Source: Nitrospinales bacterium (GTDB lineage: Bacteria; Nitrospinota; Nitrospinia; Nitrospinales; VA-1). Taken from it: DNA of 64,000 nt. The stretch spans positions 577,036 through 641,035 of the forward strand of contig CBDCXL010000002.1 of NCBI GenBank assembly GCA_965223795.1, in the 5' to 3' direction. Under the pieces are notes generated by a model that was not told the origin of the DNA, searched no databases, and saw only the letters and a program-made list of their open reading frames with translations. Below are positions 13,759 through 43,568 of this stretch, piece by piece (within the stretch, counting starts at the first letter, position 1; each line of letters begins with the position of its first letter). The translations under genes were made by a program, and so were the position numbers.

Positions 13759-14253
13759 CTAAAGCATGCGGTACAGATGCTGGCTGGGAATCGCGGGGCC
13801 GAATCCGGCTTTTTCGTAGGCCCGGCGTGCGGGAGCGTGGCTGGCGTCGGCGCCGGTGCCCACGGTTGCAACCCGCATCCCGGCCGCCCGCAGCCGGTTC
13901 AGCGCTTCTTCGAACATCCAGGTGCCGATTCCCCTGCCCTGGTGATCGGGATGGACCGCGTTGAGGTCGATTTCCCCGACCTGGGACTTGGGATCGCTGT
14001 TCACCGAGCAAAACGCGACGATGTCCGTGCCGTGCTCGATCACAAACACATCGTGCGAGGAGTCCGCGTCACAAATGGTATCGAGATATTCGGCCTGCTC
14101 GCGCTCCGCGCTGGTGATCGCAAATTCGGCGATGGTTTCGCCAACGAGGTCCCGGAACGACTGAAACACGGATTTGTACGCCGCCTCGCGGATGGCGTGC
14201 AGCCGTGGCAGATCCTTCGGCGCAAACGCCCGGATGCGGCAGTTTTTGATCAT
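13759..14253 (-). CDS. GNAT family N-acetyltransferase
   Basis: 164 aa. The acetyl-CoA binding motif is HPDHQGRGIGTWMFEEAL. Confidence 0.8.
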   Translation of the reverse strand: MIKNCRIRAFAPKDLPRLHAIREAAYKSVFQSFRDLVGETIAEFAITSAEREQAEYLDTICDADSSHDVFVIEHGTDIVAFCSVNSDPKSQVGEIDLNAVHPDHQGRGIGTWMFEEALNRLRAAGMRVATVGTGADASHAPARRAYEKAGFGPAIPSQHLYRML

Positions 14254-25198: not shown

Positions 25199-25367
25199 GT
25201 TCTTCCTCCCGCACTCAATCCGGGCTGTTCCGGTCAAGTCTGGGTCTAAGGGTCTTCTCCCCGGCCGACGAGGCGGCCCAAGCAATTTACTGATAGGCTG
25301 ACAGCAGCGTGAAACCAACGGGCAGGATTATCAATAAATTAAGATTTGCTCTTTTTTTTAGATGCGT

Positions 25368-26576: not shown

Positions 26577-27395
26577 CTAACGGGGTTCGCATTCCGCAGG
26601 AGCATTTGCAATCAGATCGTTTTCCATACTGTAGGACAAAGAACGGAATTCCGGTTCTTCCACCTTGATCGGCTGGATGTCCAGAAGCGTGTTTTCGTTC
26701 CTGAGAAAAATCGACAGGATATCGACGATGTCCTTGTACAGTCCGCGTTCCGCCTTGCGGGACGTGAAGATGCAAAACAAAGGAGCCCAGCGTCCAACAT
26801 GGTTGCGCATGAATTTCTTCATGCTGCTGAGCAGGACTCCGATCTTTCGCTCGTCATGACCGTTCTGGATTCCATATGCAGTCCTGAAGCACATGTAATA
26901 CATGAAGGCCAGTTCAATCGAAATATGGTCCAGGCGTTCCTTCGAACGTTTCCTCGGCAATTCGAAACCGAAGGTTTCAAAAAAGCCGCCCAGCTGGATC
27001 AATACGTCCGTCTGGGACTGGATCCCGCCTTCCGTACCATACTGCATTTCGTATGGAGGACACTCCATAGAAACCGCATGCCCGAAAACGTGGATGTACT
27101 CTTTCTGCACCTGCTGGACGGTCATTTTCGGCAGGTATTTGCTGAATCCGCTCACAATGGATTCAACCTGCTTCCAATCGTCCTCGTCCACAAGGGCGAT
27201 ATCCATGGGTTCGAGTAAAGATTTGGGACGGAAAAACTTGCGATTCCAGGGATAACTCAAGGCACGTGAAAGAATATCGTATATCCGTCCTCGCGCGAGG
27301 TTTAGGGATATTCTCTGTTCTTTCAGTTCTTCAAGAGTGCCGGTTTCCCCAAGTTTCGCCAACATGGGATCCGATGCTTGAGTCACGTTCGCCAT
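26577..27395 (-). CDS. TorD/NarJ-family redox-enzyme maturation chaperone
   Basis: 272 aa. The family pattern is QKEYIHVFG ... CPPYEMQYG ... GGFFETFGFEL ... RLDHISIELAFMYYM. It lies between nxrB and nxrC. Confidence 0.75.
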   Translation of the reverse strand: MANVTQASDPMLAKLGETGTLEELKEQRISLNLARGRIYDILSRALSYPWNRKFFRPKSLLEPMDIALVDEDDWKQVESIVSGFSKYLPKMTVQQVQKEYIHVFGHAVSMECPPYEMQYGTEGGIQSQTDVLIQLGGFFETFGFELPRKRSKERLDHISIELAFMYYMCFRTAYGIQNGHDERKIGVLLSSMKKFMRNHVGRWAPLFCIFTSRKAERGLYKDIVDILSIFLRNENTLLDIQPIKVEEPEFRSLSYSMENDLIANAPAECEPR

Positions 27396-27531: not shown

Positions 27532-28809
27532 TTAGATGGCGCCGACATGCTCCTCGGGCCGGACGTAGAAAGGCTCTTCAACCGTCACGCGGATGACTTC
27601 CTTTCCTTTCCGGTTGAACCCGATGATCGTGTCGTTGTACATCTCAAACTTCTTGCCGTGAATGTTGGTCTCGAAGATCTTCGGACCCGGCTCACGTTTC
27701 CATTTGAAGATGATGCGCTGTGTCGTCCTAAAGAGCTGAAGGACGCCCAGCAGATCCCGGTCCGGAACCATGTACTGATCGATCGCATGGTCGACGCCCG
27801 GTCCGAACATCTGCTGTGAATAGGCCCTGGGAACGTGCCGCGACGGTACGTAGTAACCGTTCGGCTCGGTGCCCAGCTGCGGATACAGCGGCAGTGCGAC
27901 TTTGCGGTCCCGGATCATGTAATACTGCGGATTCTCGGGATCGTGCGCCCATTCGCCGTTGCTGCCTATCTTCACCAGACCCTGAAGGCGAATCTTGCCG
28001 ACACAGGCGGCCATGCAGCGGGTCTCCATCTGATCGCCTTCCGTCAACGGATCCAGTCCTTCGATCCTCGGGTAACAGGCGATGCATTTCTCGGAGATCC
28101 GCGTCGTGCCGCGGAACATCGGCTTTTTGTAAGGACACTGCTCAACGCACTTTTTGTAACCACGGCAGCGCGACTGGTCGATCAGAACGATGCCGTCCTC
28201 CTGGCGCTTGTAGATCGCCTTACGGGGACACGCCGCCAGACAGCCCGGATACGTGCAGTGGTTGCAGATGCGCTGGACATAGAAAAACCAGATTTTGTGC
28301 TCGGGCAGCACCGAACGCGTTCCGTTGTCGCCGCCGAAGGTGCCTTCGCGGGACTGCGTGAACTCGCGGCCGTGAGCGGTGTCTTCGCCGAAGTTCGGGA
28401 AGCGCCACTCTTCGTCCGTCGGTACGTAACCGATCGCTTGCTGGTTCAAACCGATCTTGGCAGGCGCTTCGAAAATCGTCACGCCTTCGTACACGCCGTG
28501 GATCGCCTTGTTGGAAGTCTTGCGGACGTTCCACACGTTCTGACCCGGATTGGACTGCTCAAGCATCTTCAAGATCTTCCAATCCCAGAACTGCGGGTAA
28601 CCGCCGTAAGGCTTCGTTTCAACGTTGTTCCACCACATATACTCCTGGCCCTTGGAGAAGGTCCAGGTGGATTTATGGGCCATCGTACACGTCTGACAAG
28701 CAATGCAGCGGTTCGTGTTGAACACGAACGTAAACTGCTCTTTCGGATGCTTCTCTTCGTATACGTAAGTAGACATCCGGCCCAGTTGCCAGTTATAGAC
28801 TTCAGGCAT
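27532..28809 (-). CDS. nxrB: nitrite oxidoreductase beta subunit (Fe-S subunit of a type II DMSO reductase family enzyme)
   Basis: 425 aa. The Cys clusters are CIACQTC, CNHCTYPGCLAACP, CRGYKKCVEQCP, CIACYPR and CMAAC. A perfect TAAGGAGG Shine-Dalgarno is present. Confidence 0.8.
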   Translation of the reverse strand: MPEVYNWQLGRMSTYVYEEKHPKEQFTFVFNTNRCIACQTCTMAHKSTWTFSKGQEYMWWNNVETKPYGGYPQFWDWKILKMLEQSNPGQNVWNVRKTSNKAIHGVYEGVTIFEAPAKIGLNQQAIGYVPTDEEWRFPNFGEDTAHGREFTQSREGTFGGDNGTRSVLPEHKIWFFYVQRICNHCTYPGCLAACPRKAIYKRQEDGIVLIDQSRCRGYKKCVEQCPYKKPMFRGTTRISEKCIACYPRIEGLDPLTEGDQMETRCMAACVGKIRLQGLVKIGSNGEWAHDPENPQYYMIRDRKVALPLYPQLGTEPNGYYVPSRHVPRAYSQQMFGPGVDHAIDQYMVPDRDLLGVLQLFRTTQRIIFKWKREPGPKIFETNIHGKKFEMYNDTIIGFNRKGKEVIRVTVEEPFYVRPEEHVGAI

Positions 28810-28899: not shown

Positions 28900-31800
28900 T
28901 TAAATCTTCACGCGGACGTACTGACCTGCAAGGTACATTTCCGCGAATCGGTCTTTCAACGGTGACTCCGGGGTGTAACCCGTTCGCACGGGCTCCCACA
29001 GTCCTTTACCATGGAGACCACCATCCTCGGCCTTGGAGAATTTAACCAGCGTCTCTTTCGGAACTGCGTTGATCGCATGGTTATCCGCTTCGTAACCGTG
29101 GAGGAACTTCATCTTGGTTTTTGCCTTATGGAACAGACTGTCCGTCTGATGCATGGGCATCAACCAGGACCGCGTGATGGACTGCTGACCGCCGTACCGG
29201 AAGTTGGACTGATACGGAGTGGTCATCGACATGGCGCGGCCGTCGGGGCGTTCTTCATGGGCCTTGACGGTACGCTCGGTGCCGGTCCACGTGGCGTGTT
29301 TCATCATGGTGGTATGGTACGGATATGCCGGGTTGTACTTCGCCCGCAGCATGAGCCGTGCCACTTTGTACCTCGGATCCGACGGTTTCCAACCCATGTA
29401 CGGCCGGTCAGCGGGATTCGCGTCGCAGTATACATAGTCACCGTCGTTGATACCCAGGTCTTTACACAGGAACGGGTTCATGTGCACCTGCCACTCACCA
29501 ACACCCGGAGAACGCTTATCCATGCGGTAAGGATCGCCGAAGTTGTTGTTCCAGATCATATTCCAGTCCGTGGTGGCCCAGGAAGAATGCGCGGTATGTC
29601 TGGATTTCGGAGTGACGCAGTAGAACCGGTACCCCTTCTCCCACAAGAAGTTCTTGGTCGTACGCACTGCGGACCAGGGCTTCTTGATGTTACGGACGTG
29701 GCGCAGATCCGGATCCTGCTCGTCTTCCGGAATGCCGTAGTCGTCCGGCCGGATGTAGGGGTTGGTGGACACGATCACGTTCGGCAGATAAGGCGTCGCT
29801 TCAGGTCCTTCACGATGGACGATGAAGTTTTCGCCCCACTCGATCGCTTCCGGTTCGTCATTGTAGAACTGGATGCGGCCGTTCGGAGTGTAGAAAGGCT
29901 TCGACTCCGTGAACATCTCCCAGAACGGAGACCGCGGATAGGTCCGGTACAGCATCAAACAACATCCCGGCTCACCGTACTTGCCGTTGATGATGTCGTC
30001 GATGTTGTAGCCCATACCCGTGGTGGAGGTAGTGAATACCCGGCGAATCATGGCTTTCGTCCGGTTGGGCGCTTCGCCTTCATATACTTTCATATGATCG
30101 GCAAACCGCTTGTCACCGGTGACTTCCGCCAGACGCTTGGAGAATTCACGATGCATCAGGTTGTCGTCGATGGTGTCGAAGATCGGCTTGATGCCGGTGC
30201 CGCCCCAGATCTGATGGAACGGGTTCGAACACGCGGACGTGATCTCGTAAGACTCGAATTCCGCCCAGGAGTTCGGCGCCAAAACGATGTCCGAGTACTC
30301 GCAGGATCCGGTGAACTCGATGTCCTGAGCCACGATCATGTCGACGTTGTTGTTGGTGTTGAACACCAGCTCGTAGAACCACTTCGCGTTGTTGATGACG
30401 TTGACGTTAACGAACCAAACAAGCTTAGTGGGCGTCGGCATATGGGTGCGGCCGGTGAACACTTTCCGTCCATACCGCGGGGTATTGACGACCAGCGCTT
30501 TATCGCGGTGCGCCCAGTATCCGACTTCCTCACCCTTCAGGTAACCCTTGACGTTCTTCCAGTCGATGTTCTTGGCCGGATCGAGAACGGTGTTGAAGGG
30601 ATCTTCCGCGACCATCGCGGCGAAACCAGGTCCTGACCAGTGGGAACCCTGGTAGTTGCCGGCTTTGTAGTTGCCCGCCCAGGTGTGGGAACCGGAGCCT
30701 TTCGGGCCTACGTTACCGGTCAGCATCAGGGGCACATAAGAAGCCCGGTTGTGCATCGTGGCGTGGAAGTAATGGTTGATGCCTTCCCCGTAGTGGATCT
30801 CAACCGGCTTGATGGTGCCGATGTCGCGGGCAACACGAAGCACGAGATCACGCGGGGCGTGACTGATCTGATTGACGGTATCCAGATCGTAGTCTTTCAG
30901 ATGTACTTTGTACATCTCGTACAGAGGCATGACGGTGATCGTCTTGCCGCTCACGAGCTTGATGTCATAAACACCGTCCAGTGCAGGATCGATGTTTTTC
31001 TTCTTCATCTTCGCGCCGATGTCTTCGCGGTTGATCGCAACCGGTTTGTCCGAGTTGGTATCCCACACGACGAAATCGGGCATCTTGTCACGGTTGAAGT
31101 TGGCCATCCACTTCGTGGTCGCTCCATCCTTCGGCAGGGCCTGAGCCTTGTAGCCGGGGATGAAATCGTCCGGATGCAGACGGATCAGGTTGTCCGTTCG
31201 CACCAGAAGCGGCATGTCGGTGTACTCCTTAACGTAGTCCACATCGACCAGACCTTCTTCCATGATGATCTTCGCACAGCCCAGAAAGATGGAGATGTCC
31301 GAAAGACCCGCACGCACCGGAACCCAGTAGTCCGCCTTGGTTGCCGGCGGGTTGTACTCCGGAGCGATCGCAACGAGCGTGCCGCCGCGTTCCATGATCT
31401 CCGTGTACCAGTGGGCTTCCGGCATCTTGTTCTCGATCAGGTTCTTACCCCACTGAATCGTCATCTTCGCATACCGGTGGTCGGCGAAGTCGATGTCGGA
31501 GGTCTGCATTCCGTGCGTCCAGGAATGCCCCGGCGCCTGGTCGCCGTGCCAGGTGTAGTTCGACCATGCGCGGCCGCCCAATACCTGTCCCGGTCCCCGG
31601 CCCCGAATGATCGAGTCCAGAAGGGCCACCTGGTTGCCCAGGCGGTAAATGCCGTACTTGCCGATAACGCCGAGAAGTCCCATGCCGCCGCGGTACTTGA
31701 AAGTACGCGGGCCGGAACCGCCCATCGCTTCGATCATTTCAGGCTGATAACCTTCGTTCTTCAGGCGCTGGGCACCGCGGGCGCCGCTGTATGCTTTTGC

Positions 31801-32361
31801 AACGGCCACGTGGCCTTTCGCCAGATAGGTGAAGGTCTGATCCCAGGTCAAACGGACGAACTCGTCCGTGCCCCGGCTGGTGAACTTATATTTTTCGCGG
31901 TTTTCTTTATCCAGAAACGGAAAACCGTCGTCCGCCCACTGTTTCCAGCCGACGCGGATCATCGGATACTTGTTCCGATAAGGTCCGTACGCCCGGCGGG
32001 GATAGGTCATGCCACGCAGACACATGCGCGGGTTCCACGCTGCGTCGGCCTGGTTGCCGTAAAGGTCGCGGACTTTGTGATGATCGTAGTTCTGCTCGAT
32101 ACGCATCAGGATGCCGTTACGAACGAATCCGCGTACGCGGCACTGATGGGTGTCGTTGGGCGAACAGCAGTAGGTGAAAGACCGCTCATACTTGTACTGA
32201 TCGCGGTACACTTCCTCCCAACGCCGGTCGGGATAGGATTCCAACGGGTTTCCTACCTTCACTACGGGCTTTAACTGAGCTCCTACCTTCTTGCTGGAAA
32301 GGGCCATAGCTGTCGCTACACCAGCACTCACCTGCAAGAATTTCCTTCTGTTTAACCTCAT
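28900..32361 (-). CDS. nxrA: nitrite oxidoreductase alpha subunit, periplasmic type (Mo-bisPGD, Tat-exported)
   Basis: 1153 aa. The twin-arginine signal is MRLNRRKFLQVSAGVATAMALS and the FS0 Cys segment is FTYCCSPNDTHQCRVRGF. The size and the 425-aa beta partner fit the Nitrospira/Nitrospina/anammox NXR better than Nar, Ser, Pcr or Ebd enzymes. A GGGAGGG Shine-Dalgarno is present. Confidence 0.78.
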   Translation of the reverse strand: MRLNRRKFLQVSAGVATAMALSSKKVGAQLKPVVKVGNPLESYPDRRWEEVYRDQYKYERSFTYCCSPNDTHQCRVRGFVRNGILMRIEQNYDHHKVRDLYGNQADAAWNPRMCLRGMTYPRRAYGPYRNKYPMIRVGWKQWADDGFPFLDKENREKYKFTSRGTDEFVRLTWDQTFTYLAKGHVAVAKAYSGARGAQRLKNEGYQPEMIEAMGGSGPRTFKYRGGMGLLGVIGKYGIYRLGNQVALLDSIIRGRGPGQVLGGRAWSNYTWHGDQAPGHSWTHGMQTSDIDFADHRYAKMTIQWGKNLIENKMPEAHWYTEIMERGGTLVAIAPEYNPPATKADYWVPVRAGLSDISIFLGCAKIIMEEGLVDVDYVKEYTDMPLLVRTDNLIRLHPDDFIPGYKAQALPKDGATTKWMANFNRDKMPDFVVWDTNSDKPVAINREDIGAKMKKKNIDPALDGVYDIKLVSGKTITVMPLYEMYKVHLKDYDLDTVNQISHAPRDLVLRVARDIGTIKPVEIHYGEGINHYFHATMHNRASYVPLMLTGNVGPKGSGSHTWAGNYKAGNYQGSHWSGPGFAAMVAEDPFNTVLDPAKNIDWKNVKGYLKGEEVGYWAHRDKALVVNTPRYGRKVFTGRTHMPTPTKLVWFVNVNVINNAKWFYELVFNTNNNVDMIVAQDIEFTGSCEYSDIVLAPNSWAEFESYEITSACSNPFHQIWGGTGIKPIFDTIDDNLMHREFSKRLAEVTGDKRFADHMKVYEGEAPNRTKAMIRRVFTTSTTGMGYNIDDIINGKYGEPGCCLMLYRTYPRSPFWEMFTESKPFYTPNGRIQFYNDEPEAIEWGENFIVHREGPEATPYLPNVIVSTNPYIRPDDYGIPEDEQDPDLRHVRNIKKPWSAVRTTKNFLWEKGYRFYCVTPKSRHTAHSSWATTDWNMIWNNNFGDPYRMDKRSPGVGEWQVHMNPFLCKDLGINDGDYVYCDANPADRPYMGWKPSDPRYKVARLMLRAKYNPAYPYHTTMMKHATWTGTERTVKAHEERPDGRAMSMTTPYQSNFRYGGQQSITRSWLMPMHQTDSLFHKAKTKMKFLHGYEADNHAINAVPKETLVKFSKAEDGGLHGKGLWEPVRTGYTPESPLKDRFAEMYLAGQYVRVKI

Positions 32362-32534: not shown

Positions 32535-33755
32535 TCAACCGACTCCGGCCCTCAACTCATACACTTCGATGCAACGGTCACAGGCCCCGTCCTTGCTTTC
32601 CCAGTCGGGAAAATCAATCTGGATGGCCTCGATGACCATTTCATCGCAGATACTCTCGGGATCGTCCACCCAGTTGTAAGTGGGAAACTTGCACAACGGG
32701 CACGGGGATCCCTGCAAATGGATATAGTCTCTCTCCTCTTCCGCCAACTCCGCTTCATCAACATACTTGGCCATCAGCGTGTCCAGATCGGTGGCCATCG
32801 ACAACAATTCCTCATGGGTGAACACTTCGGTGCGCCACAAGCCTTCGAAGATACCCTTACGCTGACCATCCGGAATTTTGCGGTAAAAGTTGTCGAATTC
32901 GCGGTAGCGGGATTCTTTGGACATAACGGACACAACGCCCATTCTGGCCAATCGCGCATCCACATAAACGTTCCACAACAGGCGGAAGCGTGCGGTGATC
33001 ATGTTCTTGACCGACGGATTACCGGGAATGAAGGAATCCTCGTAGTCAAACTCAGGATCGACCATATCCTTCGCATGCATGAACTCGTGGATGAGAAACG
33101 CATCCAGCTCCTGGACTTCCTCAGGATTGCTGAAACGGCTCGCCAGAACCCGCATCTCGATGATGGGCTTGTTGGAGGTTCGCGCCAGAACATTCGAACC
33201 TTCATCAACCTTGTTGATCGCCCGTTTGACCGTGACCTCCTGAATTCGTTCTTCAAAGTCACGCGCCAGATCGTAGGCGATCTCGCCTTCATCGATGTCG
33301 TCTTGGGGCTGATCTGAAACTTCGGAAGCGTCTTCTTGGGTGGGGACAGGCTGATCCTGCTCGGTGGGAGTGCTTTCTAGGGTTTCGCCTTGGGATGCTT
33401 CCGGGGAAGAAGCGTCTTCTTCTAGGGTTTCGCCGGACGTTTCTTCCGCTGATGGATCCTGCAACTGGTGGGATTGAGGAGCCTTATTGCGGCCAACGGA
33501 GCGCTGACTCTTTGGAATCAGGCCAACCGCCTCTAAGGCTCGCAGCACATGTTCCCCGAGTTTCAGCTTCTCTATGAAGAACAGGCGGTTTACTTTCTCA
33601 AACGCCTCTTCGCGGTCGTCCTCGGGGAGTTCGTATATGGGGTCCGCAAGGGAATGGTATTCATCATAATCGGCACGGAACCCGGAACGCTCATGGTGGT
33701 TCAGGTGCCTGAATACGGCTTCTTCCATCAATTGCGGGCTGTAGGTAACTTTCAT
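32535..33755 (-). CDS. hypothetical protein with an HExxH motif, an acidic low-complexity linker and a C-terminal CxxC...CxxC zinc-ribbon
   Basis: 406 aa. It contains FLIHEFMHAKD, a roughly 90-aa Glu/Asp/Ser/Pro-rich linker with GETLE repeats, and a C-terminus CPLCKF ... CDRCIEVY. It lies immediately upstream of nxrA on the same strand. Confidence 0.6.
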   Translation of the reverse strand: MKVTYSPQLMEEAVFRHLNHHERSGFRADYDEYHSLADPIYELPEDDREEAFEKVNRLFFIEKLKLGEHVLRALEAVGLIPKSQRSVGRNKAPQSHQLQDPSAEETSGETLEEDASSPEASQGETLESTPTEQDQPVPTQEDASEVSDQPQDDIDEGEIAYDLARDFEERIQEVTVKRAINKVDEGSNVLARTSNKPIIEMRVLASRFSNPEEVQELDAFLIHEFMHAKDMVDPEFDYEDSFIPGNPSVKNMITARFRLLWNVYVDARLARMGVVSVMSKESRYREFDNFYRKIPDGQRKGIFEGLWRTEVFTHEELLSMATDLDTLMAKYVDEAELAEEERDYIHLQGSPCPLCKFPTYNWVDDPESICDEMVIEAIQIDFPDWESKDGACDRCIEVYELRAGVG

Positions 33756-34200: not shown

Positions 34201-36831
34201 CTATTTTTTATCGACAGCATCTTTCAGCTTGTCGATTTCCTGGATCATCTTCATGAAATGCTCGGGGTCGCCCAGCTCTTTGGCCACCGCACGGGCATTT
34301 TCGAGGTATTTCTCCCCCGGGTCCTTCCTGCTGAGCAGGATTTCCATGCGAGCCACGGTTAAAAGCAACTGGATCTGATGCGAAAGGGCCCTGGCTTCGG
34401 CAAACGTTTCCGCAGCCTGGTCGAAGTAGGACTCCCCCTCCTCAAATTGGATCTCCTTGAAATGGAGGTTCCCCAGATAGGTCAGATCCTGAGCGCATCC
34501 GATTTTATCTCCTATTTCCCGCGTCAGAGCCAATGCCTTGAGATACAGTTGTTTGGCCTTGACCCGGTCGCCGTTGCTGAAACTCAGGTTGGCGAGGTTG
34601 CGGTAATCCTCAGCCATTCCCTGCTTGTCTTTATTCCTTTCGACAATATCGAAAGATTCCTGATATCTGGTTTCGGCTTTTTCTTTATATCCACGTTCCA
34701 GAAAATACTGGCCGAGGCTTCTGAGATCGATGCTGATTTCCTTGTCGTCTTTGAGCGCCCTTGCGAACTCCAGGGCTTTCTCAAGATAGGACTGCTGATT
34801 CGGCCGGTCTTTCTTCTCTGAATAGATGTTTGCCAGATTGCGGCAATCGTAGCAGGCGGCACGCAGGTTTTTGCTTTCCTCGGCAATTTCAAGAGCCTTC
34901 AGGGCGTACTGCTCCGCCCGGCCCCAGTCCTCCTTCTGCACGTACAGCGCATACAGGTTCCTGTGGTCTTCGCTCATCTCCACCCGGTTGCCTGCCTGCT
35001 CGTCGAGCTTGAGCGCCTCCAGGTAATTGCGTTCCGCGCCGGCAAAATCGGTCTTGTTGAGACACATGTCCCCCAGACTGCGGTGATCTTCGACCTGACC
35101 GCGGCTGTCGCCCTGCCCTTCATGGAAGGCGATGGATTTTTTCATCCACTTTTCGGCGGCATCAAATTTATTGAGCTGGACGAACATCTTCGCCCGGCTG
35201 CGGTAGAGTTCGCCCAGCCCCTGCCTGTCGCCGAGCTTTTCCTTGATGGCGATCGCCTGGCCGTAGGACTCACCGGCTTTTTGATATTCCTTTTTCTCCT
35301 GCAGGACTCCGGCAAGGCTCTCCAGAACGGCGGCCTTCACGCCTTCGTCCTTGGACATTTCCGGCAGGGCGAGGGCTTTTTCAAACGCAGCGACGGCTTC
35401 ATCGAGCTGCCCCGCCATGAAATGCACGTTGGCCAGCTCGGTCATGAGGCTCATCTTTGCGGCGGGGTCCTTTTCGACGTCCGGGCTTTCCAGCAGGGAG
35501 GCGATGTCTTCCTGCCTCTGGGACAGGTATTTGGGCTGCGCCATGATGTAGACGAGCTTGTCCTGCACCTGCTGGGTGCTGCGGCTGTCTTTCATGGCGT
35601 CGTACAGGGAGTTGGCGCGGATGAAATAGGACTCGGCGTCCCTGTATTCCTCTTTTTTCATCAGGATGTCGCCGATGGCCTCGCACTGCTGCGCCATGCC
35701 GGGACGGTTTTCCAGCTTCTCCATGATCTCGAGCGACTGCCGATACAACTCCAGCGCGGGCTCCCACTCTTCCTTAAGGGTGCGCACCTGCCCGAGGTTG
35801 GCAAAACTGCGCGCCTCGCCCAACGCATCGCCCAGGGCGCTCATGATTTTGCGGGAATCTTCGTAGTACTCCAGCGCCTGATCGAGGTTTTTCTTGTGCA
35901 GGCATATGTTGCCGAGGCTGCCCAGAAGGTAGGACTGACGGCGCTGGTCCTTGCCTTCCTGAACGATCTTCAAGGCCTTGCGGAAATTTTCCTCGGCGCT
36001 GTCGAGGTATTCCGGGCCGCCTTTCTGCGCCAGTTGCAGGCAGGCTCCGCCCAGATTGCCGTAACAGATGCCGGCGGACTGGGTGTCCCCCAGTTCTTCA
36101 TAAAGGGCGATGGATTTTTCTATGGTCTCGGCGACCTTGTCCATTCGGGCGGATTTGAAATAGATCTCCTCAAGCTCCTGATAGCGGGCCAGCAATTCTT
36201 TTTTGTCGCCGGATTGCGCCAGAGAGTTGATGGTCTTGAGCAGCGCGGTCTCCTGCTGCGCGAGATAGCGGGTGTTCTTCTGGATGGATTCGACTTTATC
36301 GTTGAGCGCGTCGATCCGCTCCTTGTCTTTTTCCGGGTCCAGGCTCGCATGCGCCTTCTGGAAGTAATCCTTCGCGGTGTCGAATTCCTCTTTCTGCATG
36401 TGAACGTTGCCGAGGTACTCATAATAGACCGCCTGGCCGCCGGTGTCGTTCGCCTTGACCATGAGCTGCAAGGCTTTGTGGTAATTTTCCTCGGCCTTGT
36501 CCAGGCTGCCTTTGTACAGATACACCGAACCCAGGTTGCCGAGGGAGCTTTCGATGCCTTTCAGATCCTCCACTTTTTCCATCAGCGCCAAAGACTGGGA
36601 ATAGTAGTCCTCCGCCTTGTCCAGCTTGCGGCTCTGAAAACAGATATTCCCCAGGTTGCCGAGCACATAGGCCTGGCCGGTTTCGTCGCCCGACTGATGC
36701 ATGAACTTGAGGGCCTTGAGAAAATGGGATTCCGCTTCTTTCAAATCGTTTTTTTCCAGCGAGGCGTAACCGAGTTTTTCGTATTTTCTTCCGTCTTCCA
36801 TCGGGCAATCACTTAAAAGAGAGGTTGTCAT
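34201..36831 (-). CDS. large tetratricopeptide-repeat (TPR) protein
   Basis: About 876 aa of nearly continuous TPR units, following a recurring A/G..Y..LG..Y pattern. The start is uncertain: ATG at 36831 or 36801, while the track start at 36993 adds implausible residues. Confidence 0.75.
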   Translation of the reverse strand: MTTSLLSDCPMEDGRKYEKLGYASLEKNDLKEAESHFLKALKFMHQSGDETGQAYVLGNLGNICFQSRKLDKAEDYYSQSLALMEKVEDLKGIESSLGNLGSVYLYKGSLDKAEENYHKALQLMVKANDTGGQAVYYEYLGNVHMQKEEFDTAKDYFQKAHASLDPEKDKERIDALNDKVESIQKNTRYLAQQETALLKTINSLAQSGDKKELLARYQELEEIYFKSARMDKVAETIEKSIALYEELGDTQSAGICYGNLGGACLQLAQKGGPEYLDSAEENFRKALKIVQEGKDQRRQSYLLGSLGNICLHKKNLDQALEYYEDSRKIMSALGDALGEARSFANLGQVRTLKEEWEPALELYRQSLEIMEKLENRPGMAQQCEAIGDILMKKEEYRDAESYFIRANSLYDAMKDSRSTQQVQDKLVYIMAQPKYLSQRQEDIASLLESPDVEKDPAAKMSLMTELANVHFMAGQLDEAVAAFEKALALPEMSKDEGVKAAVLESLAGVLQEKKEYQKAGESYGQAIAIKEKLGDRQGLGELYRSRAKMFVQLNKFDAAEKWMKKSIAFHEGQGDSRGQVEDHRSLGDMCLNKTDFAGAERNYLEALKLDEQAGNRVEMSEDHRNLYALYVQKEDWGRAEQYALKALEIAEESKNLRAACYDCRNLANIYSEKKDRPNQQSYLEKALEFARALKDDKEISIDLRSLGQYFLERGYKEKAETRYQESFDIVERNKDKQGMAEDYRNLANLSFSNGDRVKAKQLYLKALALTREIGDKIGCAQDLTYLGNLHFKEIQFEEGESYFDQAAETFAEARALSHQIQLLLTVARMEILLSRKDPGEKYLENARAVAKELGDPEHFMKMIQEIDKLKDAVDKK

Positions 36832-37075
36832 CGGAAGGGACACAGACACGCTGGGACCCCGAAGATGAAGAAAGACCCGGCGAACAAAACGCTGCGGCGG
36901 CCTGATCTTGTTGTAGAAAGTGAATGATATCGAATTATATTGCCCGGAAAGAGAGGTGTCAACATGAGGCCCAAGGGATGGACCGGCACCCATTATAGCG
37001 CATCCGAATTTTAATGTGTTTGTTTTTTATGGAATATCAATCAGTTTTTGAATATCCGCAATCGGCAGGCAGGCA

Positions 37076-37105
37076 TTGACATCGACGGGATGTGCTTTTT
37101 ATAAT
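37076..37105 (+). promoter_or_regulatory. consensus sigma-70 promoter upstream of the 657-aa orphan gene
   Basis: TTGACA (37076-37081), an 18-bp spacer, then TATAAT (37100-37105), 39 nt before the ATG at 37144. Confidence 0.55.
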
Positions 37106-37143
37106 CCATCTTTGTTTTCCCCCTGAAACGCGAACCCACTCTT

Positions 37144-39117
37144 ATGTCCGATCTCGATAAGCTCGTATCCATTCTCGACCGTCCGCACACGCTTTCGTTC
37201 GATTCCAGCAAGTCCGCCGCCGAGGCGCTCAAGGCCTGCCAGTCCGAACTCAACAGCAGCACCCTGGACGGCGCCACGTACTGGCACCTGGGAGAGCAGC
37301 CGGGAGCGGCGGCGACCCGCATCAAGAAGTACCCCACCGGGCACAAGGCGTTTTATTCGCCCGAGGGGATGCGGTTTCTCACCACGGACCCGGAGGGCGA
37401 ACCGCTCAACGAAAGCGACTGGGTTCAGGATGCGGAGTTCGGTGGACTCCGTCTCAACCGGGTGCGGATGCAGCTCGATTCCAAGCAGTGGATCGGCCTG
37501 GTGCCGCGGGCCAAGTCTTTCAAGACCGAGATCGACATCAAGGGGCAGCCGGGCTGGCAGGAGATGCAACTAGACGATCTGCGCAAAAAGGCCGCCGAGG
37601 CCTGGCGGGTGCCGTTTTCGGAAGTGAAGTATTTTTACAACGACAACAACATCGTGCCCAAGGGCGAGGGCAAGTACGAGATCCATTTGACCAAGGACAG
37701 CCTGTACGCCCTGGGCGATGGCGCATTCGACGACAAAAAGCTGTTCATGAGCTTTCTGTTTTCGGTGAACTGGGAGGATCTGGACCTGATCCCGGTGGTG
37801 GAGTTGTTTCAATCGACGCTGCCGGGCAGCGGCGGCGCGTGTTTCGAGTACATCTGGGGGCTGCACGAGGATCAGTCGCGCAGCAAAACGCTGGCGCCTT
37901 TGCGCTACCGGGGGCTTCCCACCTACCCCTCGAAAGAAGCGTTCAACATTTTCTGCGCTTTTTTCACGCCCAAAGGGCCCGAAGGCACGGCGGATCAGGA
38001 CATCTACAAGATCTTCATGAACGCGGACACCTCGCACCAGATCGAATGGACGCCGAAACCCAACCCGCCCTGGCGCTATTTCAGCGCCACGCACGAACTG
38101 ACGCTCACCATCCAGGACGGCCTGCTGTACAAAGTGACGGTGCTCAACGACCCGGTGCCGATCCCGTACGTCAACCGCGAGCTGGGGGGCAAGCCGTCGT
38201 GCCAGCGGGAGCTGGTGGTGCGGACCAACGAATTCGAACTGCTGGACGGCCCAAAGCTGCGCGAGGTGCCGTTCTACCCGGCCTGGCCCATCAAACCGCA
38301 GACCAACACGCCGCGGCCGCCGGAAAAGGTTCCCTTCGACTGGAAATGGTTCTTCAACGGGTTCCCGCCGCAGGTGGACCCGGTCAAGGCGCTGCACACG
38401 GTGCCCTTCTACCCGGAAGGGGCGCAGGAAATCGACGAATCGGCGCTGCAGCCGATGGTGCTGGATCAGATTTTCTATTACATGGAAATGTCGCCGGGCA
38501 TGCCGGCCAAACTGGAAAAGGTGGAGAAGGTCCTCATCCACACCTTCGACACGGTCATCGCCGGCTGCGTGGACTGCACGCACGAACGGGAATACACGGT
38601 GCTGTTCAGCGATCCGGAATTCGCGCAGAAAAACGCCTGCCTGTTGTGGAATTACGGCGCCAAGCGCAAGCAGCTCGACAATCTGAAAAAAGTGTCCTTC
38701 CTGCCGGAGCGGGACAACATCCAGGAAGTGTACAAGGAAAAATACGGTCTGGTGTTCAAATGGATCCCGTTCATGTATTTCCAGGACCGGGAAGCCTGCG
38801 AGAGCATGCTCAAGGCGCTGGTGGACGTGCTCTTGCCGGAGGGCATCCTGTTTCTGGTGGCGCCGAGGCCCATACAGGGCCTGTTTTCGCATTACGGCCT
38901 GGAATGCCTGTACAACGATCCGGTCGTGAACATGCCGTTCTTCAGGCAGCATCTGAAGATGTGCCCGGAAAACTACGTCAACCCGGAGCTTGCGGTGTTC
39001 CTGGCCGAGAAGAAAGAAGTCTCCAAACCCGATGAAGCCCCGCCGCACCCGCCCGCAGAAGAGAAACGCGGCGCGCCGCGGCCGATGATCCGCGATTTCC
39101 AGCGCAAAATCCATTGA
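37144..39117 (+). CDS. hypothetical 657-aa protein, no recognisable family
   Basis: A long ORF with native-like codon usage. The C-terminal ~150 aa (YGLVFKWIPFMYF ... LLPEGILFLVAP) loosely resemble the distal half of a class I methyltransferase fold, but no Gly-rich SAM loop is present. Confidence 0.65.
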   Translation: MSDLDKLVSILDRPHTLSFDSSKSAAEALKACQSELNSSTLDGATYWHLGEQPGAAATRIKKYPTGHKAFYSPEGMRFLTTDPEGEPLNESDWVQDAEFGGLRLNRVRMQLDSKQWIGLVPRAKSFKTEIDIKGQPGWQEMQLDDLRKKAAEAWRVPFSEVKYFYNDNNIVPKGEGKYEIHLTKDSLYALGDGAFDDKKLFMSFLFSVNWEDLDLIPVVELFQSTLPGSGGACFEYIWGLHEDQSRSKTLAPLRYRGLPTYPSKEAFNIFCAFFTPKGPEGTADQDIYKIFMNADTSHQIEWTPKPNPPWRYFSATHELTLTIQDGLLYKVTVLNDPVPIPYVNRELGGKPSCQRELVVRTNEFELLDGPKLREVPFYPAWPIKPQTNTPRPPEKVPFDWKWFFNGFPPQVDPVKALHTVPFYPEGAQEIDESALQPMVLDQIFYYMEMSPGMPAKLEKVEKVLIHTFDTVIAGCVDCTHEREYTVLFSDPEFAQKNACLLWNYGAKRKQLDNLKKVSFLPERDNIQEVYKEKYGLVFKWIPFMYFQDREACESMLKALVDVLLPEGILFLVAPRPIQGLFSHYGLECLYNDPVVNMPFFRQHLKMCPENYVNPELAVFLAEKKEVSKPDEAPPHPPAEEKRGAPRPMIRDFQRKIH

Positions 39118-39471: not shown

Positions 39472-41310
39472 CTACATCATCACTTCCGGGGCCAGCTCGC
39501 GGTGGTCTTCGGTCTGGTTCTTGACGTAGATGTCGGGCAGGTTGTTGGTGCCGAAGTGGGTGATGTACAGGTAGACGTGCTCGCGGGCGTTGATCCTCAG
39601 CGCCCAGGGGCCGAAGTCGTTCTGGTAGAAGCTTTCGTAACGCTTCATCGCCTCTTCGGTGGTCTGGCCGGATTCGGGGGTGTAGTAGTAATCCAGCGCC
39701 AGGTCGTGCTCGGGGATTTCCTTCACGTTGATTTTGTACTCATCGGCGGCGTTGAAGATCGGCGCGTTGTTGTACAGGACGAAGAAGTACATCTCCACCG
39801 AATGGATGATGTCCTGGTGGTCGAGGAGAAACCGGCGGGTGTCCTCGGCCTCTTCGGGCGTCTCGCTGGGAAAGCCGTAAAAGCCCATGACGTGGCTCCA
39901 TATGCCCACGCGCCGCGCCTCGTTGAGATTCTTGATCGCCGCCTGTATATCCGTATCCTTTTTGACCAGCTTGATGATGCGCTCGTTGGCGGACTCCAGG
40001 CCGAAATACAGCGAACGGCAGCCGGACTCGGCGGCCTTGTCCCACAACTCGGGCTCCAGCAGGCTCGATTCGAATCGGATGAGCGTGGTCCAGTAGATGT
40101 CGAGCTTGGCCTCGATCATCATGGGCGGCAGCTTGACGAACAGCGCCGGCGGGAACGACTCGTCGGTGAACAGAAAGTGTTTGGCCTGATATTTGTCGCG
40201 CAGCTCGGCCAGCTCGCGCACGATCTGGTCGGCGTGCTTGGCGCGGAACTGATCGATGTAACCCGCGCCGTGATCGCAGAAGGTGCATTTGCCCCAGTAG
40301 CAGCCGCGCGTGCCCAGGTAGGGGACGATTTTTTCCGGGGCGAAGTACTTGTCCCAGGGCAGCCCGTCGAAATCGGGGATGGGCAGCTCGCTCACGCGTT
40401 CCTGATGCAATTCGTTGACGTGCAACTGACCGGCCTCATCCTTGTAGATGAGGTTGGGCACTTCGGATATGGGCCTTCTTCCGGACAACGCCTCGACCAG
40501 CCGCACCATCGCGTGCTCGCCTTCGTAGGTGATCATGGAATCGAAGGCGCTGCCCCAGAACTCTTCACGTTTGGGCAGCTGATCCTTGAGCCGGGTGACG
40601 ACATTGCCTCCCACCGTCACGTGAATGTGCGGGTAGTGTTTCTTGATGAGGGTGGAAAACGTGATGCCGGACATGAGCTGCACCGGCGTGCCGATGGAGA
40701 TGCCGATGACGTCGGGCTTCTCATTCTCGAGGTACTGGAACACCAGCTGGCGGCAGACGTCGGCGTAGACGTTCACCTTGTCGTCGTGCGGCGCTTTCAA
40801 GAGATCCGCGGACACCCAGGGCCGGTAGACGTTGAGATTGCTCTCGACGGGATAGAATTGCACGCTCGCCGGGAAATAGGCCACGGAGATGTATTCCATG
40901 ACTTCGCGGAAGGCGTTGAGCGCCCATTCGGCCTTGTCGATTTCGTAGAATTCCTCGGTGCGCATGATGACCTTGGCGCGCTCCACTTTCTGGATGTGGT
41001 GCTCAAGATCGATGCGGGTGTAGTCCTTCAGCATGCGCAGCAGATCGGTCTCCTGGTCTGTGAGACCGGTCCACTTTTTCGCGTTGAGCTCCTTGATCTG
41101 GTTGCGGATGCGCCCGGCAACGAACTCCAGATAATTGCGGGAAAAAAAGTGGTCGTACATCTCGACGTTGACGTCTTTCTGCACAACTTCGATGCCGTTC
41201 TGCCTGAGCACGGCGGTGAGGCTGGGCAGGGCCAGGTAAGGCGCTGTGGGAACCCATTCCGGGGGGAACAGCAGCATGACTTTTTTCAAGGGCTGCGGGT
41301 TTTGCGTCAC
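39472..41310 (-). CDS. B12-binding-domain radical SAM protein (class B-like)
   Basis: 612 aa. It has an N-terminal cobalamin-domain-like region (KVMLLFPPEWVPTAPYLALPSL), the cluster motif GTRGCYWGKCTFCDHG (40276-40305) and YFGLESANERI. The start codon is GTG; an alternative ATG lies at 41277. Confidence 0.8.
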   Translation of the reverse strand: MTQNPQPLKKVMLLFPPEWVPTAPYLALPSLTAVLRQNGIEVVQKDVNVEMYDHFFSRNYLEFVAGRIRNQIKELNAKKWTGLTDQETDLLRMLKDYTRIDLEHHIQKVERAKVIMRTEEFYEIDKAEWALNAFREVMEYISVAYFPASVQFYPVESNLNVYRPWVSADLLKAPHDDKVNVYADVCRQLVFQYLENEKPDVIGISIGTPVQLMSGITFSTLIKKHYPHIHVTVGGNVVTRLKDQLPKREEFWGSAFDSMITYEGEHAMVRLVEALSGRRPISEVPNLIYKDEAGQLHVNELHQERVSELPIPDFDGLPWDKYFAPEKIVPYLGTRGCYWGKCTFCDHGAGYIDQFRAKHADQIVRELAELRDKYQAKHFLFTDESFPPALFVKLPPMMIEAKLDIYWTTLIRFESSLLEPELWDKAAESGCRSLYFGLESANERIIKLVKKDTDIQAAIKNLNEARRVGIWSHVMGFYGFPSETPEEAEDTRRFLLDHQDIIHSVEMYFFVLYNNAPIFNAADEYKINVKEIPEHDLALDYYYTPESGQTTEEAMKRYESFYQNDFGPWALRINAREHVYLYITHFGTNNLPDIYVKNQTEDHRELAPEVMM

Positions 41311-41671: not shown

Positions 41672-42172
41672 ATGGAAATTCAAGAAACCAGCACAGAGAA
41701 CAAAGCCAAGATTCTTCTCGATGAAGCAAATTTAGCATTTTGTGAAGCGGCTGAACGTAAGGACAGCCCCAACGAACGGAACGTTGACGGCTCGGCCTGG
41801 GACCACGGCAAGATGGACGGCGAGTTCGACGAAGAGGATTATCAGAAAATCCTGGAAATGCAGCTGCGTTCGGCGCAGATCTGCGACGCGCAGCCGGAGC
41901 TGGAAGCCAAATCCGAGGAGATGTTCAAATCGGTGACGCCGGAAAACGCCGAAGAGGTGCTCAAGGACCTGATGGCCGATCCGGGCCTTAAGGAGCTTGG
42001 GGAAATCGCGGTCAAGATCTTCATCCTGCGCTTCCCGACGGTGCAGTCGTTCGTCAACAAGGGGCATCCGCTGGTGCTCGCGATGGACGAGTACATGCTG
42101 GAAAACTCCAACGCGCAGAACTGGTACGATTACCGGAACATCGCCGAAGAATACGGCTGGGCGATCAAATGA
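41672..42172 (+). CDS. hypothetical acidic 166-aa protein
   Basis: Starts MEIQETSTENKAKILLDEANLAF and is preceded by GGGGA. The track ORF from 41519 adds an Arg/Gly/Cys-rich leader. Family unknown. Confidence 0.5.
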   Translation: MEIQETSTENKAKILLDEANLAFCEAAERKDSPNERNVDGSAWDHGKMDGEFDEEDYQKILEMQLRSAQICDAQPELEAKSEEMFKSVTPENAEEVLKDLMADPGLKELGEIAVKIFILRFPTVQSFVNKGHPLVLAMDEYMLENSNAQNWYDYRNIAEEYGWAIK

Positions 42173-42245
42173 GGTCTTTCCATCCCGGCGCGCACGCCTG
42201 AGATGCGCCCGCCTGCGGACGGAAACCCAACACAGGCATCCTGCC

Positions 42246-43568
42246 ATGCAGTTTCGCTACAAACTCGCGAAAGAAACGTTCAAGAATAAAAAGATCCCGC
42301 CTAAAAAGGCGCCGGGAGAGGACAACATTTCCGCCGATCAGCGCGGCAACGACGCCTCGATCGACGGCAAGCTGTTGAGCCTGGACAAGGACACCAAGCT
42401 GGACCGCTCCGAACCGGCAAAACCCGCGACCTCCAGGGAAGTGTCGCGGCGGGACCTGTTCTCGTTCGGGCGGCTGACCGATTTCGCCGAAGCGGTGGAG
42501 GAAGGCGAACAAGCCCTGCCGAAAAAGAAAAAAGCGCAAGCGCCCGAAGAGGAAACCTCCGAAACAAAATCCGCGGAAGCGCCTGTGGAAACGGCGGAGA
42601 GCGAAGCGGCGGCAGCCGAAGCGGCGCCGAAAAAGAATTTTTTCCGCCGCATGATCGGAAAGTTCAAAGCCGAACCGGAAGACGAAATAGAATCCACATC
42701 CGCCGCGCCCGGCGAGGAAACTTCGCTAACCGATGAGGCGGAGGCCAACGCCGGAGCGGAAGCGGCCGCCGGGCACACCGCATCCCCGGAGCCCGCTGCG
42801 CCCAACCCTTTCGAGCTTTCCGAGGACGAAGAGGTCGACCCGGAGTACAGCCGCCGCAACCTGCTGCGCCAGGGCGTGCACTTTTTCGCCAAGCCGGCGG
42901 TGGAGAAGGTGCAGAGCAAGATCGACCGGGTCAACGAGACGGTCGACAAGATCACCAAGCGGGTGCCGCTCATCCGCCCGCCGGGGGCGATTTCCGAGCG
43001 CAAGTTTTTGCAGGCCTGCACGCGCTGCGACGAGTGCATCCACGCCTGTCCCAAGGACGCGATCCAGCGGGCGCCCAAGAAAATGGGGTTCCTCATCGCG
43101 GGCACGCCCTACATCGATCCGAAAAAGATCCCCTGCGTGATGTGCGACGATCTGCCCTGCATCCCCGCCTGCCCGGACGGGGCGCTGGTGATGCCGGAGA
43201 GCCGCAGCCGCGAAGACGTCAAAATGGGCTATGCCATTCTGGACAAGGCGAAATGCCAGGCCTACGGCGACACGTTCTGCCAGCAGTGCGTGATCGACTG
43301 CCCGATCCCCGGCGCCATCAGCCAGGTGGACCAGAAACCGGTGATCCACAAGAACGCCTGCACCGGCTGCGGCGTGTGCGTGCTCTCGTGCAGCACGGTC
43401 AACATCCCGCTGGCGATCAAGATCAAGCCGCAGATGGTGATCGAAAGCCAGCTGCGCAAGAAACGGCTGGAGCAGGAAAAGGCCCGCCTCGCCGCCGAAC
43501 GGGAGGCCGAGGAAAAAGCCGCCCAGGAGGCGCAAGCGCAGGAACCGGCGGAAAGCGCCGGCGAGTGA
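42246..43568 (+). CDS. NapG/MauM-like 4Fe-4S ferredoxin-type protein with a ~195-aa low-complexity N-terminal extension
   Basis: 440 aa. It has the family signature RPPGAISERKFLQACTRCDECIHACP plus three further Cys clusters (CVMCDDLPCIPACP, CQAYGDTFCQQCVIDCP, CTGCGVCVLSCS). RR motifs lie at residues 68-69 and 203-204. Confidence 0.75.
   Translation: MQFRYKLAKETFKNKKIPPKKAPGEDNISADQRGNDASIDGKLLSLDKDTKLDRSEPAKPATSREVSRRDLFSFGRLTDFAEAVEEGEQALPKKKKAQAPEEETSETKSAEAPVETAESEAAAAEAAPKKNFFRRMIGKFKAEPEDEIESTSAAPGEETSLTDEAEANAGAEAAAGHTASPEPAAPNPFELSEDEEVDPEYSRRNLLRQGVHFFAKPAVEKVQSKIDRVNETVDKITKRVPLIRPPGAISERKFLQACTRCDECIHACPKDAIQRAPKKMGFLIAGTPYIDPKKIPCVMCDDLPCIPACPDGALVMPESRSREDVKMGYAILDKAKCQAYGDTFCQQCVIDCPIPGAISQVDQKPVIHKNACTGCGVCVLSCSTVNIPLAIKIKPQMVIESQLRKKRLEQEKARLAAEREAEEKAAQEAQAQEPAESAGE

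Follow-up and report, generated by a model that had tools for sequence, protein, structure and literature searches.

A methyltransferase-like protein encoded beside the nxr genes of Nitrospinota and preceded by a conserved, fully consensus sigma-70 promoter

Introduction

What might a nitrite oxidiser do with a protein of no named family, whose gene lies close to those for nitrite oxidoreductase (NXR) and follows a promoter that matches the sigma-70 consensus in both hexamers? The question is raised by a stretch of 64,000 nucleotides (nt) from a Nitrospinales bacterium (GenBank assembly GCA_965223795.1, contig CBDCXL010000002.1, positions 577,036 to 641,035, forward strand), which is the nxr locus of a member of the Nitrospinota and is here called the window; coordinates are those of the window throughout. 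The gene in question encodes a protein of 657 amino acids (aa), X657, and the question turns on two features:

37144..39117, + strand: X657 coding sequence, 657 aa (open reading frame and translation; homologues; AlphaFold; hydropathy)
37076..37105, + strand: X657 promoter, TTGACA-N18-TATAAT (sequence read and scan; orthologous loci)

Our findings, set out below, are that this promoter is one of a back-to-back pair preserved in dozens of Nitrospinota species and that X657 ends in a domain of methyltransferase fold whose cofactor motifs have been altered. The reading we favour, with a probability of about 0.45, is a composite one: X657 would be an abundant protein with a remodelled ligand-binding pocket that, with a radical S-adenosylmethionine (SAM) methylase and a ferredoxin as partners, takes part in a step (methylation or maturation) linked to nitrite oxidation.

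Results

Twin perfect promoters upstream of X657 and its divergent neighbour

A first-pass annotation, made from the letters alone, had claimed a fully consensus promoter upstream of X657, and both a direct read of the sequence and a consensus scan (score 12/12 for the sigma-70 -35 and -10 elements) bear it out: on the plus strand an 18-nt spacer separates TTGACA at 37076-37081 from TATAAT at 37100-37105. The two perfect hexamers, at a spacing within 17+/-1 nt, precede a gene read in their own direction, and 38 nt separate the -10 hexamer from its ATG at 37144. Transcription would start near 37112 and leave a 5' untranslated region (UTR) of about 32 nt. Between -10 and start codon (37106-37143) there is no recognisable Shine-Dalgarno sequence, and many orthologues carry AGGA or GGAG 8-10 nt before the start.

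Natural promoters seldom match the consensus perfectly, and the annotation's remark that such sites are rare holds for the window, which contains exactly two of them against about 0.023 expected in 64 kb at uniform base composition. Both share a single intergenic region and point away from each other, the second one towards a gene for a TPR protein:

36934..36962, - strand: second perfect promoter, TTGACA-N17-TATAAT, divergent, for the TPR gene (scan; 61/63 Nitrospinota loci)
34201..36831, - strand: TPR protein, about 865-877 aa (Pfam TPR_12 and related repeats; the orthologue at locus L001 is called at 865 aa)

The longest open reading frame of the TPR gene spans 34201-36993, but its true start is probably 36831 or 36801 rather than 36993, because the promoter at 36962-36934 would then lie upstream of the gene.

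We asked how far these promoters are kept in a sample of 80 loci from different Nitrospinota species (1.15 Mb in total), counting for each gene the loci that contain its 5' end plus at least 300 nt upstream. A perfect TTGACA-N16-18-TATAAT precedes X657 in 44 of 73 loci, usually 60-90 nt 5' of the start codon, and precedes the TPR gene in 61 of 63, so the TPR-side promoter is the better conserved one. Over the whole 1.15 Mb there are 115 perfect sites where 0.4 would be expected, and nearly all belong to three adjacent genes, i.e. X657 (44), TPR (61) and a zinc-finger-like gene (7), with two of the other three being edge cases of these same genes. The third gene lies directly upstream of nxrA:

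32535..33755, - strand: 406-aa protein, acidic in its middle and closing C-terminally in a zinc-finger-like CxxC...CxxC (translation, synteny, promoter counts)

Its homologues at loci L047, L049, L053, L054, L072, L073 and L076 have a perfect N16 promoter of their own, about 90-190 nt 5' of the gene. Both perfect promoters of the pair are present in the cultured type strain Nitrospina gracilis 3/211, at 13848-13820 and 13909-13937 of locus L089 (about 1731265-1731237 and 1731326-1731354 in HG422173.1); one clade of oceanic Nitrospina keeps the TPR promoter but before X657 matches the consensus weakly only (TTTACC-N18-TATTAT).

The hexamers are conserved while the DNA around them is not. Spacer, upstream DNA and 5' UTR of the X657 promoters have diverged to 0.1-0.5 bit per position in 44 distinct upstream regions, the conserved exceptions being a G that follows the -35 hexamer and, directly 5' of the -10 hexamer, a G-C-T-n-n-C. 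Shared ancestry alone is unable to account for identical hexamers. The first-pass view of the promoter as meaningful thus gains comparative support, and the pattern shows that the X657 promoter is under selection for a perfect match. For X657 and TPR gene alike, there is strong comparative evidence that the promoters are real and, as judged from their match to consensus, strong.

As to the spacer element itself, G-C-T-n-n-C (window 37090-37099 and orthologues) reaches up to 1.7 bit per position, and it is accompanied by a conserved C just 3' of TATAAT; a TG extended -10 is absent. It may be a lineage-specific contact of the housekeeping sigma factor. Compared with consensus sigma-70 promoters of the E. 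coli type, the X657 promoter is thus conventional in its two perfect hexamers, in the 16-18 nt spacing among orthologues and in a sensible distance to the start codon. It differs from usual sigma-70 promoters in that perfection is preserved phylum-wide and as a back-to-back pair, and from those with a TG extended -10 in that the conserved G-C-T-n-n-C sits directly 5' of the -10 hexamer instead.

Could the match be incidental, or the promoter be one that is normally repressed, with X657 serving a low-level or stress-induced function (oxidative stress, for instance) unrelated to nitrite oxidation? Very strong promoters are often repressor targets, the loci that manage without a perfect X657 promoter would fit such a view, rubrerythrin adjoins second-paralogue genes of the family (there is also a rubrerythrin fusion call, P0117) and a ferritin gene lies near a Nitrospira copy. 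Chance, however, cannot yield identical hexamers in 44 diverged upstream regions, let alone in 61 of 63 on the TPR side, and no conserved operator-like element or repeat was found between the twin promoters, the short repeats of the window not being conserved beyond its closest relative. To our minds this scenario is therefore most improbable.

Other regulatory signals gave little. Upstream of nxrA there is no meaningful match to a sigma-54 promoter, and an Rfam scan of 33-43 kb returned sub-threshold noise only. The codon adaptation index against an nxrABC reference was discarded as a proxy for expression, since it merely tracks G+C content at third codon positions and does not discriminate. 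From promoter quality and conservation we infer that X657 is probably made in large amounts.

The X657 family and its parts

The open reading frame of 657 aa at 37144-39117 proved intact, as first annotated, and the failure to place any motif in its product was no oversight either: X657 has no match in Pfam, in NCBIfam or among PDB sequences, curated methyltransferase profiles included. A search of 5.8 billion proteins returned 146 homologues, mostly near full length (83-100% query coverage) and 52-86% identical, and when 1.84 billion cluster representatives were searched exhaustively with a profile, only 125 matches came back, most of them fragments, with about five full-length clusters and two short forms (440-458 aa) among them. 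These homologue lists show the best 120-150 proteins, few of which are named; among the matches listed for the search with X657, all named homologues are Nitrospinota. The closest relative in the species collection is an orthologue from a Nitrospinales metagenome-assembled genome (86% identity). X657 is hence a real, intact protein of an unnamed and uncharacterised family. Translation and hydropathy revealed neither a signal peptide nor a membrane helix, and the protein is predicted to be cytoplasmic.

Orthologues fall into size classes of about 650 and about 620 aa. We considered whether these are two paralogues and rejected the idea, as both occupy one syntenic locus and true second paralogues (51-54% identity) are located elsewhere, in the company of a radical SAM-like gene, a 323-aa gene, rubrerythrin, a Sel1 protein, a flavin adenine dinucleotide (FAD) oxidoreductase and a 414-aa gene. 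One contig labelled 'Gammaproteobacteria bacterium' (L077, PBYU01000098.1) carries a typical Nitrospinota second-paralogue gene (53% identity) and is probably a binning or labelling error.

The AlphaFold model, built on a 44-sequence alignment, is confident (predicted local distance difference test, pLDDT, 88.9; predicted template modelling score, pTM, 0.85) with disorder confined to 628-657, and together with the alignments it divides the protein as follows:

37144..37536, + strand: aa 1-131, N-terminal helical hairpin, then long beta-hairpins forming a sheet (model secondary structure)
37783..37971, + strand: aa 214-276, family signature (alignments including a family MAFFT alignment)
38044..38328, + strand: aa 301-395, beta-rich module missing in the short-form relatives of 440-458 aa (alignment, in which P0137 and P0172 lack these columns; model)
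38434..39024, + strand: aa 431-627, class I (Rossmann) methyltransferase-like domain (Foldseek against PDB; CheR and ToxA profile matches; hhalign; motif comparison)
39025..39114, + strand: aa 628-657, disordered tail rich in Pro, Glu and Lys (pLDDT below 50; alignment)

The one part for which structural relatives were found is the methyltransferase-like domain. Its seven strands (462-466, 483-488, 517-521, 534-540, 563-574, 586-593, 616-623) follow the canonical class I order in a region modelled at pLDDT above 90, and a Foldseek search of PDB turned up 234 structures at E<=0.001 (class I methyltransferases at E about 1e-5 and target TM 0.45-0.53), with the top 50 listed all being of SAM-methyltransferase fold (NNMT, BioC, StiE, TrmN, ArmA, TehB and NodS among them). 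Sequence profiles point the same way with less force: the family profile finds CheR in PDB at E 0.0024 over query 528-589 (beta4-beta5), the C-terminal-domain profile finds the ToxA methyltransferase at E 0.057, two single relatives give sub-threshold Pfam matches (DUF938 at 2e-4, Methyltransf_23 at 1e-3), and hhalign against a PrmC-like methyltransferase yields a low probability in a sensible register that sets K-W-I-P-F opposite N-P-P-Y. UniProt automatically names the N. gracilis orthologue (M1ZCD6, WP_005009247.1) a 'Methyltransferase domain-containing protein'. Membership of the CheR type was considered and rejected. CheR-type enzymes are marked by an N-terminal helical domain, a motif I of the A-x-x-S-T-G-E-E-P-Y-S type and a beta-subdomain for receptor peptide binding; for X657 the match is local to beta4-beta5, motif I is different and there is no Pfam CheR.

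Where the fold is kept, the cofactor motifs are not. Motif I reads VLIHTFD469TVIAG rather than DxGxG, with the Asp invariant and the glycines replaced, so that the E/D-x-G-x-G-x-G loop expected after beta1 is missing; the ribose-binding acid expected at the end of beta2 aligns with F488, which is F or Y throughout the family, and conservation of nearby D490 does not extend beyond Nitrospinota. At the motif IV position stands W540-I-P542-F, and LLPEGILFLVAP forms beta5. D469, W540 and P542 are invariant family-wide, across both phyla in which the family occurs. The first-pass suggestion of a class I methyltransferase without the Gly-rich loop therefore agrees with the structural search as well as with the motif I comparison. 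Set against class I methyltransferases such as NNMT, BioC, TrmN, PrmC/HemK, CheR and ToxA, X657 shares the fold, the acid at D469, the aromatic-Pro motif after beta4 and an LxPGGxLFL-type beta5; it differs by D-T-V-I-A-G in place of the glycine loop, by the missing ribose acid, by W for the D/N of (D/N)PPY, by the absence of any hidden Markov model (HMM) above threshold and by an N-terminal region of 430 aa without relatives. We read the domain as a descendant of true methyltransferases, with a pocket that has been remodelled but is still constrained.

An alternative that has to be weighed here is that X657 is an ordinary, active SAM-dependent methyltransferase for a small molecule or protein, the N-terminal region being its substrate-binding module and the odd motif I the product of drift. 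The fold matches comprise small-molecule as well as protein and RNA methyltransferases, the invariant D469 and W540-x-P542 would suit such a role, and DxGxG is kept in some Nitrospira type B members (D-A-G-L-G in P0350) and in short forms (D-C-G-A-G in P0137), the operon of the latter resembling a pathway for small-molecule or peptide tailoring. In Nitrospinota and Nitrospira type A, however, the first glycine positions of motif I are V/I or L, the ribose acid is replaced in the whole family, no methyltransferase HMM reaches threshold and the strongest conservation falls outside the methyltransferase domain. On balance, we regard an ordinary enzyme as unlikely.

That strongest conservation lies in aa 214-276, where D-x-IPVVELFQS-x-LPG-x-G ... 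DDQ ... LRYRG-x-P-x-YPS ... F-x-x-FF-x-P is nearly identical between phyla and modelled as strand, Gly-rich loop and helix; invariant residues include V218, L221, G228, Q244, R256, G257, P262, F270, F274 and P276. The segment is probably part of the functional site. The element order beta-alpha-alpha-beta-beta-beta-alpha-beta-alpha-beta and the LPGSGGA loop had suggested a GNAT fold, marked by a Q/R-x-x-G-x-G/A pyrophosphate loop, for aa ~116-277, an idea we dropped: no GNAT is among the Foldseek matches of the 1-430 model against PDB, hhalign against GNAT gives a probability of 0.1% and a central-domain profile has no match among PDB sequences. The N-terminal region as a whole, modelled separately at pLDDT 83.8 (aa 1-430), has no fold relative by Foldseek in PDB or BFVD, and for aa 1-131 the same two databases returned noise only (beta repeats resembling OspA, RHS and MORN; E 8e-3 and probability 0.05 at best). 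Pfam has no match even at E<=1, and we make no claim for RHS/YD or MORN repeats. As a high-confidence prediction without a relative in PDB, the first 430 aa are a good target for structure determination.

The X657 neighbourhood in Nitrospinota

The genes that surround X657 in the window are, on the side of the TPR and zinc-finger genes, those for NXR, a chaperone and a 606-aa protein and, on the other side, those for a radical SAM protein and a ferredoxin:

28900-32361, - strand: nxrA, 1153-aa molybdoenzyme of the type II dimethyl sulfoxide (DMSO)-reductase family (Pfam and NCBIfam)
27532-28809, - strand: nxrB, 4Fe-4S subunit (Pfam and NCBIfam)
26577-27395, - strand: TorD/NarJ-like chaperone (Pfam and NCBIfam)
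25520-26521, - strand: nxrC, haem subunit with EB_dh domain (Pfam and NCBIfam)
23498-25318, - strand: 606-aa protein without family match, downstream of nxrC (same position in many Nitrospinota loci, 52-67% identity)
39472..41310, - strand: B12-binding radical SAM protein, 612 aa, class B methylase type, convergent with X657 (Pfam B12-binding and Radical_SAM)
41672-42172, + strand: conserved 166-aa protein (within the pair 41672..43568)
42246-43568, + strand: 440-aa ferredoxin-domain protein (low-complexity N-terminus, C-terminal 4Fe-4S ferredoxin domains)

Of the neighbours named in the first-pass annotation, the divergent TPR gene (longest frame 34201-36993) and the convergent B12-radical SAM gene (39472-41310) were correctly placed; the nxr context, the twin promoter and the Nitrospira homologues had been overlooked. 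The arrangement recurs in about 60 Nitrospinota loci and in N. gracilis 3/211. One flank consists of nxr/TorD/NxrC genes or the 606-aa gene and then the zinc-finger and TPR genes, the other of X657, the B12 radical SAM gene (adjoining X657 in most loci), the 166-aa gene, the ferredoxin gene and aspS. Linkage to nxr, TorD or NxrC is seen in more than one lineage, namely in the ~60 Nitrospinota loci, in N. gracilis and in two Nitrospira loci described below (L086 and L090, type A).

Compared with the nxr accessory genes of Nitrospira, Nitrospina and Kuenenia (PMC3578206), X657 likewise holds a conserved nxr-adjacent position, while it lacks a signal peptide or cofactor motif and its Nitrospira type B copies are not linked to nxr. 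A putative zinc-finger protein is among the conserved nxr-cluster genes reported there, and the published list does not contain X657 (Lucker et al. 2013, PMC3578206).

This company invites a second alternative, in which X657 is a non-catalytic pseudo-methyltransferase that serves, together with the TPR and zinc-finger proteins, as an abundant scaffold or chaperone for pre-NXR before its export by the twin-arginine translocation (Tat) pathway. It would agree with the degenerate cofactor motifs and with the position of the three perfect-promoter genes, all of which lie around the nxr, TorD and NxrC genes. Short terminal peptides are common ligands of TPR proteins, and X657 carries a conserved one on its disordered tail, ending in P..(L/I)R(G/D)F.R, which might serve for docking, for instance to the TPR protein encoded next to it. 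Furthermore, no other system of nitrite oxidisers is expressed as highly as NXR (PMC6606698) and, at such a level, stoichiometric helpers of NXR would need strong promoters. The tail, however, occurs only in the ~650-aa orthologues and is missing from those of ~620 aa including the one of N. gracilis, no TPR partner is present at the Nitrospira loci, the invariant pocket residues suggest a retained ligand site, and the recurrent association with radical SAM genes would go unexplained. A purely structural role thus strikes us as unlikely.

The radical SAM association is what points back to the reading we favour, i.e. X657 acting with a methylase. The best NCBIfam matches of the window's radical SAM protein are PhpK-type and ribosomally synthesised and post-translationally modified peptide (RiPP) C-methyltransferases, both below cut-off, and its orthologues in N. 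gracilis and N. watsonii, which are more distant from the window's organism than the Nitrospinales genome above, are 70-71% identical to it. In about 14 loci the TPR gene and X657 are, in addition, separated by a gene for a true TIGR03975 'RiPP maturation radical SAM C-methyltransferase' (607 bits; cut-off, 282); examples are a 615-aa protein at 5700-7547 of L002 and those at L005-L012, L014, L020, L031, L048 and L075. The ferredoxin-domain protein, encoded just before aspS, may be a dedicated electron donor. Its long N-terminal half is rich in Ala, Glu, Pro and Lys and precedes two 4Fe-4S motifs, and its gene (42246-43568) always follows the B12 radical SAM and 166-aa genes.

The same association allows for X657 being not a partner of the methylases but their abundant substrate, modified post-translationally by the adjacent cobalamin enzymes much as methyl-coenzyme M reductase is modified by cobalamin radical-SAM methylases. 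One to two B12 radical SAM genes beside the X657 homologue in four lineages, as well as the inserted TIGR03975 gene, would be in line with this. Yet the idea draws purely on context, no leader-like region or sign of modification was found in X657 and many loci do without the inserted gene, so we consider it very unlikely.

Elsewhere in the window, a 568-aa protein (21763-23469, + strand) combines the folate-binding domain of glycine-cleavage T-protein (aminomethyltransferase) with a C-terminal TPR array, which is an unusual architecture.

Homologues beyond Nitrospinota

A profile of divergent members reached 1309 homologues, and those named in this listing are Nitrospira sp. Kam-Ns4a, Ca. Nitrospira bockiana, Nitrospiraceae and Nitrospirota only. 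Among the matches listed, all named family members thus come from nitrite-oxidising Nitrospinota or Nitrospira-type Nitrospirota, with a few shorter relatives in other organisms.

Two kinds occur in Nitrospira. Type A (~619 aa; loci L086, L090 and L091) is followed by a gene for a 540-aa metallo-beta-lactamase-fold protein and faces two B12 radical SAM genes whose products are 56% and 46% identical to the window's enzyme; a Nitrospira-type nxrA lies divergently upstream in two of the three loci (L086, L090), its product being 53-54% identical to that of the window. The 323-aa and 414-aa genes of the Nitrospinota paralogue locus likewise have homologues at type A loci. At all three the genes form a tight cluster of X type A, the 540-aa metallo-beta-lactamase-fold protein, an 80-aa protein, the two B12 radical SAM proteins and proteins of 420, 68, 320 and 433 aa, of which the 320-aa and 420-aa ones are also found at the Nitrospinota second-paralogue locus L079. 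Type B (~595 aa) is located between an aldehyde dehydrogenase gene and pyrimidine genes. A further lineage, P0122, has a radical SAM gene upstream and an overlapping 544-aa gene downstream. All in all, the radical SAM link recurs in at least four lineages and the nxr link in two phyla, neither being universal.

The short form P0137 (458 aa, DxGxG intact; L087, a Logan SRR12282713 contig) lies in an operon with a 2-oxoglutarate (2OG) oxygenase, a beta-lactamase-fold enzyme, a 395-aa nitroreductase-family enzyme and a GNAT, adjoining TonB and ABC transport genes, in a non-nxr context. By its gene company this form may reflect an ancestral tailoring function of the family.

A known system with some resemblance is polytheonamide biosynthesis, in which the N-methyltransferase PoyE works with the cobalamin radical-SAM C-methyltransferases PoyB and PoyC. 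X657 is likewise of methyltransferase fold and stands beside one or two class B radical SAM genes (including, at some loci, a true TIGR03975), and its relatives likewise have 2OG oxygenase or nitroreductase-family neighbours. Unlike PoyE-like clusters, X657 loci have no identified precursor peptide, protease or transporter (a precursor gene was not searched for in the TIGR03975 loci), and their genes are core ones, present in two phyla beside respiratory genes rather than in a sporadic biosynthetic cluster.

Discussion

How, then, might a remodelled methyltransferase serve nitrite oxidation? In the scheme that we favour the pocket would still bind a ligand or substrate, be it SAM in a non-canonical pose or another molecule, and the conserved central Gly-rich segment would contribute to the binding site. 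X657 would work with the neighbouring cobalamin radical-SAM methylase and its ferredoxin in a joint methylation or maturation step needed by nitrite oxidisers with periplasmic NXR, and the most plausible target would be a protein or cofactor of the nitrite-oxidation machinery that is handled in the cytoplasm.

Several observations weigh against this scheme. That both the glycine loop and the ribose-binding acid have been lost speaks against SAM being bound in the ordinary way. The genes for X657 and the radical SAM protein converge and are not co-transcribed, and adjacency to nxr could reflect co-inheritance on a genomic island rather than shared function. At Nitrospira type B loci there is neither an nxr nor a radical SAM gene nearby and at the Nitrospira homologue loci no consensus promoter was found; among Nitrospinota, 29 of 73 loci lack a perfect X657 promoter with the gene intact, which means that the perfect promoter is not essential. 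The listing of radical SAM homologues was filled by Nitrospinota, so that co-distribution is seen in the loci read, and a literature search for the family, the accessions of the N. gracilis orthologue included, retrieved no mention of it and no expression data in the papers covered.

A bolder version of the scheme would have X657, the TPR protein and the zinc-finger protein as abundant, unrecognised cytoplasmic components of nitrite oxidation in Nitrospinota and Nitrospira, with X657, a methyltransferase-derived protein of new N-terminal fold, installing or handling, jointly with dedicated cobalamin radical-SAM methylases, a methyl modification on NXR or one of its cofactors. As it stands, we hold this version to be distinctly unlikely.

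At the level of fold X657 is a variant of a known theme, at the level of family it is uncharacterised, and the problem is tractable since cultured N. gracilis has the arrangement. The twin perfect promoters in dozens of Nitrospinota species are a rare natural case of selection for a maximal promoter match, and they offer a ready-made strong promoter for genetic tools in bacteria that are hard to handle. Nitrospinota and Nitrospira make much of the nitrate in ocean and soil, and their NXR is poorly understood biochemically; the conserved and probably abundant family found next to nxr in these two phyla offers a concrete candidate where an accessory function is missing. If the bolder version were true, the key enzyme of marine nitrate formation would gain a maturation step so far undescribed, and a role linked to radical-SAM methylases could be relevant to the dependence of marine nitrite oxidisers on vitamin B12.

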